DNA from: Escherichia phage vB_EcoM_ESCO47
Sequence record: OM386662.1
Length of the DNA: 64,000 bases
Strand: one strand, 5' to 3'
How positions within the stretch are numbered: position 1 is the first letter of the stretch; every line of letters starts with the position of its first letter. Of the stretch, positions 10,158-34,829 are shown one piece after another. Both the position numbers and the translations under genes were made by a program. Below the pieces are notes generated by a model. It made no database searches and was not told where the DNA came from. It saw nothing but the letters and a program-made list of their open reading frames with translations.

Positions 10158-11180
10158 ATGGCTGAATGGATAGATAATGAATTTGCTTATCGTGCGTTTT
10201 CTCACCTACCTCGTTTTAGACAAATCAATAATTCAAGCACATTTAAATTAACATTTCGTTGTCCAGTTTGTGGCGACTCCCAGACAGATGCAATGAAAGC
10301 CCGCGGTTGGTATTATGGCGGTACTCCTGGCAATGTACATTGTTATAACTGTCAATATCATAATACAATTTCTGGATACTTAAAAGAGTATGATGAAGAG
10401 CTTTATCGCGAATATCTAATGGAAGTTCGTAAAGAAAAAGCTAGAATGGAACCAAAGATTGAAAAGTTTCCTGAAGCTAAGCCGGAACCAGAGAAAAAGA
10501 CTATAAATTCTTTGCCGTCTTGTTCTCGTCTGGACAAGTTGCCTGAAGAGCATCCTATTGTGAAATATGTTAAGTCTCGATGCATTCCTAAAGAATCATG
10601 GAATAGACTATGGTTCACATTAGAATGGCCTAAATTGGTCAACAAGATTCAACCAGGGACATACAAGAAAGAGATTCCTGAACCACGTTTAGTGATTCCT
10701 ATTTTTAATAAAGATGGGAAGGCCGAGTCATTCCAAGGACGTGCACTTCGTAAAGATGCTCCTCAGAAATATATCACTATTAAAGCGTTTGAGACGGCAA
10801 CGAAAATATACGGTGTTGAACGTGTTAAGGAAGGAGATGTCTGGGTAATGGAAGGTCCTATTGATAGTTTATTCATACCCAATTCAATAGCTATTACAGG
10901 CGGCTCGATAGATTTAGATATGGTACCATTTAAAGAACGTCGGGTATGGGTAATGGATAATGAACCTAGGCATCCGGATACTATAGCTCGTATGAAACGT
11001 TTGGTAGATGCAGGCGAACGTGTCATGTTCTGGGATAAAGCTCCATGGAGATCAAAGGATGTGAATGATATGGTAATGAAAGAAAATGCAACACCAAATG
11101 AAATCCTTGAATATATGAAACAGAATATTTCAAGTGGGTTGCATGCTAAAATGAGATTATCTAAATATTCTAAAATTTAG
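10158..11180 (+). CDS. 61: DNA primase gp61
   Basis: 340 aa; zinc-ribbon CPVCGDS...CYNC and near-colinear match to T4 gp61 as I recall it. Confidence 0.95.
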   Translation: MAEWIDNEFAYRAFSHLPRFRQINNSSTFKLTFRCPVCGDSQTDAMKARGWYYGGTPGNVHCYNCQYHNTISGYLKEYDEELYREYLMEVRKEKARMEPKIEKFPEAKPEPEKKTINSLPSCSRLDKLPEEHPIVKYVKSRCIPKESWNRLWFTLEWPKLVNKIQPGTYKKEIPEPRLVIPIFNKDGKAESFQGRALRKDAPQKYITIKAFETATKIYGVERVKEGDVWVMEGPIDSLFIPNSIAITGGSIDLDMVPFKERRVWVMDNEPRHPDTIARMKRLVDAGERVMFWDKAPWRSKDVNDMVMKENATPNEILEYMKQNISSGLHAKMRLSKYSKI

Positions 11181-11374
11181 ACCAATCCTACTAGTGCAAA
11201 AGCAATATCAACTACTGTGTCAAGAGGCACAGAAGGAACGATAATACCGTTAGCAACTAGCAATGGAGCAATACCGAAATTCCAAGAAATGATTCCACCA
11301 ATAACAACAGCGGCTAAAATCGTTTTCTTTTTATGTCCTTTGATAGCGGCGATTAACAACGGTAACTTAAGCAT
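11177..11374 (-). CDS. small membrane protein (65 aa), antisense to the early-gene flow
   Basis: Hydrophobic; GGAG 9 nt upstream of ATG; paralogous to the adjacent minus-strand ORF. Confidence 0.5.
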   Translation of the reverse strand: MLKLPLLIAAIKGHKKKTILAAVVIGGIISWNFGIAPLLVANGIIVPSVPLDTVVDIAFALVGLV

Positions 11375-11570
11375 GCAAATTAACTCCGATTGCTTTGATT
11401 ATTGAAAGTATATGCTGTAACTCCACTTGTGGTAATATAATAGCTTGAGTTGCGGCCAATGGAACTATTACTAGATTCCATACTAAAACGTCCACAGCAA
11501 GAAAAAAGAATATCAACTTACGTGATTCTTTATTTGTTAACTTCCAGATTTGATAGAACACAGTTCCCAT
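11367..11570 (-). CDS. small membrane protein (67 aa), antisense to the early-gene flow
   Basis: AGGAGG 4 nt upstream of ATG; overlaps downstream ORF by 8 nt; shared WN(F/L)xI(A/V)PL core with its neighbour. Confidence 0.5.
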   Translation of the reverse strand: MGTVFYQIWKLTNKESRKLIFFFLAVDVLVWNLVIVPLAATQAIILPQVELQHILSIIKAIGVNLHA

Positions 11571-11598
11571 AAATCCTCCTACGTTATAGGTTTATTTA

Positions 11599-11623
11599 TG
11601 CTTTTTATCAGGTTTGGTATAAT
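11599..11623 (+). promoter_or_regulatory. candidate middle promoter upstream of gene 56
   Basis: TGCTTT 11599-11604 followed 13 bp later by -10 TATAAT 11618-11623. Confidence 0.4.
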
Positions 11624-11658: not shown

Positions 11659-12180
11659 ATGGCGCACTTTAACGAATGTTCACAACTGATTGCTGGTGTT
11701 GATAAAGCTGAAGAAGCTTATTTTAATGCTCTTATTCACGAAGATAAAGACCCGTTGCAGGTAATGCTTGATATGCAGAAATCTTTACAGGTTCGTCTGG
11801 CAAATGACAAGCCTGAACATAACAAACATCCTGATGAATTGGCCACTGCTGGTGAAGTCGTTGATTGGCTACGCAATCAGAAAGATTATATTGACGATGA
11901 ATTCCGTGAACTTCTGACTTCTCTTGGTGGTATGAGCAATGGTGAAAAAGCCGCCAGCAGTGTATGGAAGCCGTGGAAGGCGCAACATGCTGAATATCGA
12001 AATCGTCGTATCGATGAACTGTCTCCTGAAGACCAGCTTGAAATCAAATTTGAAATGATTGATATTCTCCATTTCGTTCTGAATATGTTCCAAGGTCTTG
12101 GTCTTACTGCTGAAGAAATCTTTAAATTGTACTACCTGAAGAACAAACATAATTTTGAACGCCAGGATAATGGATATTAA
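11659..12180 (+). CDS. 56: dCTP pyrophosphatase gp56 (dCTPase/dUTPase-like)
   Basis: MAHFNEC...DPLQVMLDMQ...YYLKNK...RQDNGY matches T4 gp56 as I recall it; listed ORF starts at TTG 11644, ATG at 11659. Confidence 0.9.
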   Translation: MAHFNECSQLIAGVDKAEEAYFNALIHEDKDPLQVMLDMQKSLQVRLANDKPEHNKHPDELATAGEVVDWLRNQKDYIDDEFRELLTSLGGMSNGEKAASSVWKPWKAQHAEYRNRRIDELSPEDQLEIKFEMIDILHFVLNMFQGLGLTAEEIFKLYYLKNKHNFERQDNGY

Positions 12181-12182
12181 GA

Positions 12183-12190
12183 TATAAATA
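12183..12190 (+). promoter_or_regulatory. late promoter (TATAAATA) for soc
   Basis: Exact TATAAATA 29 nt upstream of the soc ATG. Confidence 0.7.
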
Positions 12191-34169: not shown

Positions 34170-34829
34170 TTATTTAGCCCTTCCTAAAATCCTGGCCGCT
34201 TGGTTACAAATAGAAGCTAAGCGGTCTTCTCCTATTATTTTAGTCCCCTTATACCAATACATTGAAACAGCCCCAGCATATACGTTGTCCAAATTAAAAT
34301 AAGGGCAACTATACATGTAGTTTAGTTCCTCAGTTTTAGACTTTGTTGGCAGAAATGCGAACTCTGTTTTAGAATCAAAGTGCCTTCCACTTAAATGAAT
34401 TAAATATTCATTCATAGTCTTATCCACCGGAAATCCACCTAAAGACTTCTCGGAAATGGTAGTAGGTAGTTTACCCTCATATGCAATAAGGTCCACAAAA
34501 TAATTTAAATTTTTAGGGCGGAAAGAATACACTGCACTAAAATCTGCACCGGAAGAGATATGAACTATCTGTAATTGTTCTAAAGCCGCAGATTCAAAAC
34601 GTTGGTCTCTTTCCTTTTGTATAACTTCTGTGTATGTGTCATATTTGGCTCTCACATAATAGTCGAGGAATATAGTTCCTTTATACCATATCAAAGCCAT
34701 AATGAATAAAAGAACAACAACGGCCACACGAGAAACAAGAACTTTCCCGGTGGCATTATCTTTGAAAATACGATCTAACAACCCAAATAGAATATCACTA
34801 GGAGAGAATGATACTCTAGGCGCTGCCAT
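34170..34829 (-). CDS. t: holin T
   Basis: 219 aa; MAAPRVSFSPSDILFG...single TM...C-terminal periplasmic domain matching T4 T as I recall it. Confidence 0.93.
   Translation of the reverse strand: MAAPRVSFSPSDILFGLLDRIFKDNATGKVLVSRVAVVVLLFIMALIWYKGTIFLDYYVRAKYDTYTEVIQKERDQRFESAALEQLQIVHISSGADFSAVYSFRPKNLNYFVDLIAYEGKLPTTISEKSLGGFPVDKTMNEYLIHLSGRHFDSKTEFAFLPTKSKTEELNYMYSCPYFNLDNVYAGAVSMYWYKGTKIIGEDRLASICNQAARILGRAK

Follow-up and report, generated by a model that had tools for sequence, protein, structure and literature searches.

Two overlapping genes between genes 61 and 56 of Escherichia phage vB_EcoM_ESCO47 as a probable late operon for diverged small membrane proteins

Between genes 61 and 56 of Escherichia phage vB_EcoM_ESCO47 (OM386662.1), within the 64,000-nucleotide stretch of DNA that we analyzed (the window), lie two overlapping minus-strand genes. 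In the reading that we somewhat favor, they form a two-gene operon, probably expressed late in infection, that encodes two diverged paralogues of a conserved family of small membrane proteins. An initial annotation, made from the sequence alone, had described an operon of paralogous ORFs of 67 and 65 residues behind strong ribosome-binding sites, and this description holds up well: both ORFs and both binding sites are present (Table 1), and the operon arrangement is supported by a start/stop overlap, a single promoter motif and homology between the two products. The pair is not peculiar to ESCO47: it represents, in this genome, a conserved locus that recurs in no fewer than ten genera or unclassified lineages of T4-like phages.

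Table 1 Features of the small-gene pair and its flanks (window positions)
Feature	Position	Strand	Evidence or remark
Gene 61 (DNA primase), convergent flank of the pair	10158..11180	+	PHROG 47, E 2.7e-101
Downstream gene, type-1, 65 aa (ESCO47_00130)	11177..11374	-	PHROG 2024, E 2e-24; 100% database match
Upstream gene, type-2, 67 aa (ESCO47_00131)	11367..11570	-	PHROG 2024, E 8e-20; 100% database match
GGAG ribosome-binding site of the downstream gene	11384..11387	-	9 nt before ATG; within the 3' end of the upstream gene
Shine-Dalgarno AGGAGG of the upstream gene	11575..11580	-	4 nt before ATG; read in sequence
Late-promoter-like motif CATAAATA	11593..11600	-	7/8 match to the gp55 late promoter of T4, TATAAATA; 22 nt before the first ATG
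Possible MotA-type middle promoter for gene 56	11596..11623	+	TTATGCTTT, 13 nt, TATAAT; read in sequence
Gene 56 (dCTPase/dUTPase), divergent flank of the pair	11659..12180	+	PHROG 173, E 8.6e-46; annotated homologues

The gene pair and its upstream region

The pair fills the 463-nt gap between gene 61 and gene 56. As read in the sequence, the two genes overlap by 8 nt, from the ATG of the downstream gene to the stop codon of the upstream one (ATGCTTAA, 11367–11374), and at the other end the stop of the downstream ORF overlaps the stop codon of the convergent gene 61 by 4 nt (11177–11180), an overlap that had also been noted initially. Both products are labeled hypothetical proteins in the databases. 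Because several minus-strand ORFs of 80–93 residues occur inside the neighboring plus-strand genes, the ORF length of the pair alone is not above chance. Both genes are real and under purifying selection: in the minus-strand frames dN/dS was 0.04–0.12 for all pairs with an estimable dS, with values of 0.06–0.11 for the type-2 gene and 0.04–0.12 for the type-1 gene, for which dS was saturated and hence yielded no ratio in 3 of 15 pairs. Plus-strand coding in relatives, which the initial annotation had named as a finding that would count against the pair, was looked for at the homologous place in T4, and no conserved plus-strand ORF was found there.

T4-type late genes are recognized by a TATAAATA-type promoter that lies ~6 nt upstream of the transcription start and close to the gene. 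A single motif resembling this promoter, CATAAATA, would serve both genes of the pair and suggests, by its sequence, late expression. Conservation of the first T of the late-promoter motif is reported to be poor in T4-like phages (PMC1524935). Against late expression, the 2006 late-promoter prediction for RB69 placed none on the ORF029w strand near the ORF029w locus (PMC1524935). In the window, ATAAATA is depleted (12 sites versus 28 ± 4.8 expected), and 4 of the 11 sites other than that of the pair precede known late genes, namely holin t, 34, 36 and soc. The layout upstream of holin t, GATAAATA-N21-ATG, matches that of the pair. The soc gene is a late gene in the early region, with its own TATAAATA at 12183–12190, 600 nt away, but it shares the strand of the early genes, and its product is a soluble capsid protein. 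The pair had been described as antisense to the surrounding early operons; it does lie on the opposite strand, but this is merely the late-gene orientation, which holin t and the tail-fiber genes 34 and 36 share.

The ATAAATA motif is kept across relatives despite diverging flanking sequence. In 10 of the 12 loci examined it precedes the start codon of the single or first gene by 13–22 nt, as it does in the three Gaprivervirus-type loci. The ribosome-binding site is AGGAGG or GGAGG in 8 of the 11 other single-gene or first-gene loci, with variants in PhAPEC2 (AAGGAG), ZX14 (GGAGGT) and PM2 (AGGAG). A scan for sigma-70 promoters returned 3 matches versus 3.7 expected, and a match within the upstream gene (11435–11407, minus strand) was set aside as chance level. 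The minus-strand late motif stands back-to-back with, and overlaps, a candidate MotA-type promoter, which by eye resembles the T4 middle-promoter consensus. For the pair itself, transcription would start at CATAAATA through the phage late sigma factor gp55, and translation of the second gene would be coupled to that of the first at the ATGCTTAA overlap.

The protein family and its predicted architecture

The type-1 protein matches the PHROG 2024 profile over its full length (residues 1–65 of 65) and the type-2 protein over residues 1–61. This family (RB69ORF029w-like) has no function assigned in PHROGs. Its two subtypes are distinguished by the patterns MLKLP..IAAIKG.KKK...WNF..APLLVA.G..VP.VPLDTVVD.AFA.VGLV (type-1) and MGxxFYQIWKL...WNL..VP.AATQ..LPQV (type-2), and the two ESCO47 proteins are ~22% identical overall. 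The common hydrophobic core noted initially is confirmed by the stretches WNFGIAPL and WNLVIVPL and by a BLASTP alignment with 35% identity over 31 residues (E 6e-6). Across three family alignments (A2, A3 and A4), the core of the 60–75-residue protein consists of W31-N32, P37, G43, P47 and V49; no alignment shows a substitution at W31, N32 or P37, and P47 is likewise without exception in A2 and A4 and conserved at 90% or more in A3. The type-1 protein holds all six core residues and the type-2 protein five, with Ala for Gly at position 43, a column that is only nearly invariant in the family alignments.

As the initial annotation had supposed, both products are predicted to be small membrane proteins with one transmembrane helix each. 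AlphaFold models contain helices at residues 4–12, 17–41 and 51–62 in the type-1 protein (pLDDT 83.6) and at residues 2–11, 14–41 and 51–61 in the type-2 protein, and hydropathy peaks at 1.9–2.4 in both. Each protein is predicted to begin with a short amphipathic helix and a basic cluster, followed by the single transmembrane helix of ~25 residues that bears the invariant W-N, a proline-containing loop and an acidic amphipathic helix of ~12 residues. The C-termini read ...DTVVDIAFALVGLV and ...HILSIIKAIGVNLHA; charges cluster near the N-terminus instead. By the positive-inside rule, this charge distribution and the models indicate a single-pass membrane protein with a cytoplasmic N-terminus and a periplasmic C-terminus. 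An independent 2006 prediction for RB69ORF029w likewise gave a transmembrane segment, at residues 21–41, and no signal peptide.

A profile search run exhaustively over 1.8 billion representative proteins returned 17 clusters, all of small family proteins, and no link to a characterized family. Members were found in phages only, and where a host is named it belongs to the Enterobacterales. When the two proteins, three distant members and the T4 copy described below were scanned against Pfam, NCBIfam and PADLOC, no meaningful match emerged; neither the PADLOC defence profiles nor Pfam and NCBIfam, including their holin families, produced a match at E ≤ 1. The best hits in the PDB were at E 0.11 by sequence profile and E 4.6 by Foldseek, and a Foldseek search of BFVD returned family members only. 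A literature search that included T4 ribosome profiling and T4-like temporal RNA-seq found nothing on an RB69ORF029w-like gene. Two family entries carry the unverified names "Holin" and "holin family protein".

The locus in other phages and the origin of the tandem

In every T4-like locus examined, the family gene lies at the 3' end of gene 61 on the opposite strand. The locus is present in Mosigvirus, Tequatrovirus (T4 among them, where the copy is unannotated), Dhakavirus, Marfavirus, Kanagawavirus, Gelderlandvirus, Mosugukvirus and Gaprivervirus, as well as in the unclassified Straboviridae phage Ursula and in Klebsiella phage kv_tblp2, whose record lineage gives Viruses and nothing lower. 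RB69ORF029w and RB32ORF030w resemble the ESCO47 proteins in size, in the W-N..P..G..P.V pattern and in their position convergent with gene 61, and the ESCO47 type-1 protein is 83% identical to the RB69ORF029w-like Mosigvirus copy. RB69-type and T4-type phages have a single type-1 gene, whereas in ESCO47 an extra type-2 gene is inserted upstream. Most phages sampled carry one subtype only, and among the loci sampled single genes are commoner than tandems; hundreds of phage records match one subtype query, and few appear in both match lists.

Tandems are known in both orders. In Gaprivervirus, VR7ORF033w and its neighbor (VR25 gp031/gp032) likewise form a type-1/type-2 tandem between genes 56 and 61 with a single CATAAATA before the first gene; there, however, type 1 precedes type 2 with an 8-nt spacer instead of the 8-nt overlap of ESCO47, and the alleles are ~45–65% identical to those of ESCO47. 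The GGAG junction of the ESCO47 pair recurs in NC-G and the 8-nt gene overlap in L014–L017. In NC-G and VR20-like genomes one copy is broken and the other has no sign of loss. Because most sampled relatives carry one subtype and copies are broken in these genomes, any cooperation of the two subtypes is not obligatory.

The T4 copy is an ORF of 66 residues on the plus strand of NC_000866 (17738–17938), between dam and 61. It is a type-1 gene whose product is 48% identical to the ESCO47 downstream protein, and it shares the late-type layout, GATAAATA-N21-ATG with AGGAGG, and the 4-nt convergent overlap with gene 61; it differs from the ESCO47 pair in being a single copy and in having dam, not gene 56, as its other neighbor. 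The RefSeq annotation of T4 lacks this ORF, and its exact sequence occurs in databases in raw-read assemblies only. Few phage genomes are annotated as well as that of T4, yet its RefSeq record misses a conserved, selected small membrane-protein gene that relatives have in the same position. Being unannotated, the T4 copy has likely been overlooked by gene-by-gene studies and by family catalogues based on that annotation.

Sequence comparisons of the two ESCO47 genes point to different histories. Over the type-2 gene and its promoter region, ESCO47 is 87–98% identical to phages with unrelated backbones, which indicates that this segment has been exchanged horizontally between phage backbones. 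In particular, the ESCO47 type-2 protein is 94–96% identical to the L014 and L016 copies, while the primases are 63–64% identical. By these comparisons, the pair consists of different subtypes joined by recombination. A fresh local tandem duplication was rejected, as the copies are ~22% identical overall and the type-2 segment has a phylogenetic affinity unlike that of its flanks. No close relative of the type-2 allele turned up when IMG/VR was scanned.

Distant homologues occur in unrelated phages without a primase neighbor. Those in unrelated siphophage or prophage contigs are found where a tail-gene cluster ends, at its far side, and are co-directional with the tail genes. Three lie ~0.5–3.5 kb from a lysozyme gene, a loose association with the lysozyme on the other strand, and some adjoin DUF3800 or RelA_SpoT genes, presumably of a kind known from defence regions. 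An analysis of the neighbors of distant homologues against PHROGs and Pfam gave sub-threshold coiled-coil noise only, and a bacterial genome scan for the distant subgroup returned nothing.

Possible roles of the pair

We would guess that the proteins are late inner-membrane modulators of envelope or lysis events and neither a canonical holin nor a toxin/immunity pair, although we hold this with appreciably less confidence than the operon itself. Lysis timing and exclusion, both raised in the initial annotation, may each apply. The proteins would act late in the inner membrane through helix-helix contacts with a larger membrane protein; their likeliest role would be to tune envelope or lysis events, and the subtypes may provide alternative or complementary specificities. 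A more specific version, which is speculative, is that the two subtypes represent a previously unrecognized late inner-membrane module of T-even phages that times holin T triggering or lysis inhibition, or shields the envelope of the infected cell, with both subtypes together making it effective against more hosts or competitors. A role in lysis timing, in exclusion or at a host membrane target would make the family a new component of a textbook system, and the single 200-nt gene of T4 makes this cheap to test.

It is also possible, if unlikely, that the pair is a late exclusion or protection factor that blocks DNA entry or envelope damage by superinfecting or re-adsorbing progeny phage, with the subtypes covering different competitors. 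Small inner-membrane proteins with a conserved loop that is predicted to face the periplasm would suit this function, the alleles have diverged far beyond their flanks and move horizontally between phages, a pattern expected of conflict genes, and the position of distant members after tail genes at prophage ends, beside DUF3800 or RelA_SpoT genes, is typical of accessory and exclusion genes. T4 Imm and Spackle are likewise small envelope proteins of T-even phages; however, the pair shows no similarity to Imm or Spackle (PF14373 and PF25676), and Imm and Spackle are encoded separately near the locus in relatives. Moreover, these T4 exclusion genes are expressed early, whereas the locus described here has a late-type motif.

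Somewhat less probable is an action on a host inner-membrane protein that the pair would regulate or inhibit, be it as an anti-defence protein that counters an abortive-infection effector acting at the membrane or as a modulator of a host transporter or protease, comparable to many bacterial small membrane proteins. The lone transmembrane helix, its invariant W-N..P face and the lack of an enzymatic domain are consistent with this role, as are the finding of the family in phages only, with named hosts that are all Enterobacterales, and the exchange of subtypes between phages of different hosts. Against it, PADLOC and the other scans gave no match, and late timing would be too late to counter most defences.

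We consider it improbable that the pair provides a second canonical holin or pinholin, or a holin/antiholin pair, that permeabilizes the membrane. Like the holins T4 T, phage 21 S68 and lambda S, the proteins are small, membrane-embedded and expected late, and their promoter layout is that of holin t in the window; the two family entries with unverified holin names point the same way. They share no sequence or profile similarity with these proteins, however, and match no Pfam or NCBIfam holin family. Their C-termini are hydrophobic and acidic, lacking the charged cytoplasmic tail typical of holins, no endolysin gene adjoins any T4-like locus examined, and ESCO47 already has holin T. T4 t mutants are not known to lyse, which gives no sign of a back-up holin in T4.

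The initial annotation had also raised a toxin/immunity-type function, in which one small protein would be toxic and the other neutralizing. Two overlapping genes for small membrane proteins recall such a system, but we regard it as highly improbable because the two paralogues have the same architecture, most sampled phages carry one gene, with few records in both subtype match lists, and one copy has become a pseudogene in some lineages with no sign of loss in the other; the gene order is also reversed in Gaprivervirus. For ESCO47, a therapeutic-candidate coliphage, the pair represents two accessory genes without sign of a toxin or virulence role.

The least probable reading, that the ORFs arose by chance or that the region in truth yields an antisense RNA, made late and directed against gene 61, is largely refuted by the conservation pattern, namely the low dN/dS, invariant residues across distant genera, strong ribosome-binding sites, an overlap with gene 61 of just 4 nt and the homologues that lack a primase neighbor. 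In its favor, any transcript from the putative promoter would continue into gene 61 in the antisense direction. From the stop codon of the downstream gene to the lower limit of the scan (10900–11176) there is no terminator-like site, and the only minus-strand terminator candidates in the scan are within the downstream ORF and ahead of the operon.

The two genes and their family

The 463-nt gap between genes 61 and 56 of Escherichia phage vB_EcoM_ESCO47 is occupied by two ORFs on the minus strand, and the sequence bears out the lengths and positions in the initial annotation. Both of the strong ribosome-binding sites claimed for them are present, an AGGAGG 4 nt ahead of the first ATG and a GGAG 9 nt ahead of the second. 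The stop of the first ORF overlaps the start of the second as ATGCTTAA, and the second ORF ends convergently with gene 61, the two stops overlapping by 4 nt. The DNA of the flanking genes is ~92% identical to that of Mosigvirus phages, e.g. PhAPEC2 and JS09.

Features of the interval between genes 61 and 56 (window coordinates)
Feature	Position	Strand	Remark
Primase gene 61	10158-11180	+	flank, convergent with the pair
Downstream ORF, 65 aa	11177-11374	-	hypothetical protein ESCO47_00130 in public databases
Upstream ORF, 67 aa	11367-11570	-	hypothetical protein ESCO47_00131 in public databases
Late-promoter-like motif CATAAATA	11593-11600	-	22 nt before first ATG
MotA-box-like TTATGCTTT, 13 nt, TATAAT	11596-11623	+	upstream of gene 56
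dCTPase gene 56	11659-12180	+	flank on the other side of the pair

The identity of both proteins is established by their match to one catalogued family, PHROG 2024 (E 2e-24 and 8e-20). Aligned with each other they are 35% identical over the core (E 6e-6), which, with the common family match, confirms that they are paralogous. Selection acts in both reading frames: in comparisons with several relatives dN/dS is 0.04-0.12 in every pair for which dS was estimable; saturation left three of the 15 type-1 pairs without a ratio. W31, N32 and P37 do not vary in any of the three family alignments; P47 is fixed in two of these and reaches at least 90% conservation in the other, and G43 and V49 are nearly invariant. 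ORF length by itself proves nothing, because longer minus-strand ORFs exist within neighbouring genes. T4 carries no rival ORF at the corresponding site on the strand of gene 61. We regard the evidence that both ORFs are real genes as decisive, and the original observation is correct. Both were already on record as hypothetical genes, their family is widespread, and the tandem form already exists in published genomes. What is of interest, which we rate as modest, is that T4 itself has an unannotated, conserved and probably late membrane-protein gene, that phages exchange and sometimes stack the two subtypes of the family, and that a function could be assigned through simple experiments.

A conserved locus with two subtypes

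The gene 61-adjacent locus is conserved and is not peculiar to ESCO47. A single homologue lies on the opposite strand to gene 61, at its 3' end, in Mosigvirus (RB69ORF029w type), Tequatrovirus RB32 (RB32ORF030w), Dhakavirus JS10, Marfavirus, Kanagawavirus, Gelderlandvirus, Mosugukvirus, the unclassified Straboviridae phage Ursula, Klebsiella phage kv_tblp2 (whose record lineage stops at Viruses) and one more metagenomic T4-like contig. The T4 copy (66 aa; NC_000866.4 17738-17938(+), or 4239-4439 of the T4 locus L004) lies between dam and 61 and is preceded by GATAAATA and AGGAGG. No feature is annotated for it in the T4 RefSeq record, and the exact protein sequence occurs only in raw-read assemblies, being absent from NCBI and UniProt proteins. 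Every one of the 34 named members listed in the T4-type and Mosigvirus clusters is annotated as hypothetical. A few members are evidently mislabelled, as 'DNA packaging ATPase' (MY02, SAKp28) or 'dCTP pyrophosphatase' (UniRef name for SEA1), and two carry unverified holin labels, 'Holin' (OE5505, UniProt) and 'holin family protein' (EAWsc9); no profile match was found to back any of these four public-record names.

The family falls into two subtypes. Type 1 (MxKLPxLIxAIKGxKKK ... WNF ... PLDTVVDxAFAxxGL) is that of Tequatrovirus and Mosigvirus, while type 2 (MGxIFYQIWKL ... WNL ... AATQG..LPQV..EH) is found in Dhakavirus, Marfavirus, Kanagawavirus, Gelderlandvirus, Mosugukvirus and several Klebsiella phages; tblastn relatives occur in 701 and 108 phage records, respectively. 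In ESCO47 type 2 precedes type 1, and this tandem recurs with the identical 8-nt overlap in Phage NC-G (MK310184) and, intact with an 8-nt overlap, in the metagenomic contigs L014/L015 and L016/L017; the tandem of contig L013 differs in its type-2 allele and has a 9-nt spacer. Gaprivervirus-type genomes (34 records, VR7, VR25 and VR26 included) carry a Gaprivervirus type-1 gene, and in the loci examined type 1 comes before type 2, the reverse of the ESCO47 order. The type-2 copy of NC-G (L003 2793-2995) lacks 1 nt in an A-run, which is either a genuine frameshift or a sequencing artefact, and that of a VR20-like genome (L039 1609-1815) is broken by a frameshift as well as a nonsense codon at position 2 (ATG TGA). 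The type-1 partner is intact in both.

The mosaic origin of the ESCO47 pair is evident from sliding DNA comparison, which gives sharp boundaries. Segment 11365-11640, comprising the type-2 gene and its upstream region, shares 87-98% identity with NC-G, L014 and L016 and is missing from PhAPEC2, the Mosigvirus whose gene 61 and 56 proteins are 98% identical to those of ESCO47. At the protein level the type-2 product matches the L014 and L016 copies at 94-96% identity, while the primases that go with these copies share just 63-64% with the ESCO47 primase. The DNA of the type-1 gene shows only 71-82% identity with Mosigvirus copies, compared with ~93% for flanking genes 61 and 56. Since identity levels and boundaries differ between the type-2 segment, the type-1 gene and the flanks, the pair was assembled through recombination between phages, and the whole locus evolves via allele swapping. 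The distinct affinities of the type-2 segment and the flanks rule out a recent local duplication. The type-1 gene is also a local divergence hotspot despite a dN/dS of ~0.1.

A putative late promoter

The pair does run opposite to the early operons, as first noted, but this is merely the late orientation, since the minus strand of the window also carries t, 34 and 36. The only promoter-like feature ahead of the pair, CATAAATA, matches the T4 late promoter TATAAATA at 7 of 8 positions; a sigma-70-like match within the upstream gene is at chance level. In 10 of 12 loci the lone gene, or the first of a tandem, has ATAAATA 13-22 nt ahead of its ATG despite diverged surroundings, and the full TATAAATA is found in Marfa, ZX14 and kv_tblp2. 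ATAAATA also precedes the first gene in the three Gaprivervirus-type loci, and in tandem loci it stands before the first gene only. Within the window ATAAATA is strongly depleted on both strands (12 sites versus 28 +/- 4.8 in shuffles, all 100 of which held at least 12), and the full TATAAATA has 5 occurrences where 7 were expected. Five of the 12 sites, the pair's included, lie 21-30 nt before an ATG, and the other four precede holin T, tail-fibre gp36, gp34 and Soc, which are all orthologous to classic late genes. Four of these five have a canonical GGAG-type RBS, the gp34 site only a weak purine-rich AAGGAAAAA. The remaining seven sites (34134-, 36187-, 38865-, 46170+, 46692+, 50217+, 61092+) are not followed within 45 nt by the start of any ORF of 40 aa or more. 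The conserved placement, the depletion and the known late genes at the other ATG-proximal sites suggest that CATAAATA is functional, and we infer gp55-dependent late transcription of the pair, with translational coupling of the second gene to the first. The RB69 late-promoter list of Nolan et al. 2006 (PMC1524935) has no entry for the ORF029w strand in the vicinity of that gene, which makes the assignment new and putative. The same authors found the first T of the motif to be poorly conserved in T4-like phages (PMC1524935). Holin t (34170-34829(-), PF11031, E 6e-92), a classic late gene, has GATAAATA instead of TATAAATA, a non-canonical first position, and its layout, GATAAATA-N21-ATG, matches that before the pair.

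No terminator-like site was found in 10900-11176, from the downstream stop codon to the lower limit of the scan, and late transcripts would therefore enter gene 61 antisense; terminator candidates on the minus strand are confined to the downstream ORF and to sequence ahead of the operon. In NC-G a perfect hairpin, TAGGGAGGAAACTCCCTA (L003 2582-2600), lies where gene 61 and the small gene converge, between their stops. Because these genes do not overlap in Dhakavirus-backbone genomes, the hairpin may be a bidirectional terminator, missing from ESCO47. On the other side of the pair, the MotA-box-like element stands back-to-back with the late motif and overlaps it, and middle and late promoters of divergent genes may thus share the same few bases.

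Protein architecture and possible function

AlphaFold models built on the family alignments give both proteins a common three-helix plan, with helices at 4-12, 17-41 and 51-62 in type 1 (pLDDT 83.6) and 2-11, 14-41 and 51-61 in type 2 (pLDDT 74.6). The hydrophobic maximum of each is its single long helix, which agrees with the membrane location first proposed. A basic cluster of 4-5 residues directly precedes this helix and conserved acidic residues lie in the tail; by the positive-inside rule the N-terminus is predicted to be in the cytoplasm and the C-terminus in the periplasm. For RB69ORF029w, a prediction published in 2006 also found a lone transmembrane segment (21-41), with no signal peptide.

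An exhaustive profile search of 1.8 billion representative proteins returned only 17 clusters, all of 33-80 aa, and no relatives were found in Pfam, NCBIfam, PADLOC, PDB sequences or PDB folds. The most distant members, confirmed as PHROG 2024 (E 1.3e-8), are on unrelated siphophage/prophage contigs, codirectional with the tail genes and at the far end of their cluster; an endonuclease VII gene and a small coiled-coil protein with a transmembrane segment often precede them. A lysozyme gene on the opposite strand lies within ~0.5-3.5 kb of three of these members. Scans of the neighbours around distant members gave nothing firm.

Any function proposed here is a guess: a single-pass inner-membrane protein, presumed late, with a conserved helix face would most plausibly act by binding a larger membrane protein. 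The family would then tune lysis or envelope events late in infection, our first choice among functions from the presumed timing and the context of the distant relatives, and a tentative one. A late exclusion or protection role ranks second and is doubtful; a host-target or anti-defence role, ranked third, is less probable still. A canonical holin is unlikely, since the two proteins lack a charged C-terminal tail, have no holin-family match and belong to a phage that already has holin T. The toxin/immunity pair initially suggested is very unlikely, given that the partners are paralogous, most sampled phages have one gene only, one genus shows the opposite gene order, and some genomes have a decayed copy.

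Some distant members adjoin DUF3800 or RelA_SpoT genes at a prophage end, neighbours that we take to be of a kind familiar from defence regions. In the prophage-like contigs L018-L020, L022 and L023, members adjoin a DUF3800 or RelA_SpoT-domain gene and DUF2188, just ahead of host genes (bssR/yliI-like), and these tail-cluster-end sites resemble a hotspot for accessory or defence genes.
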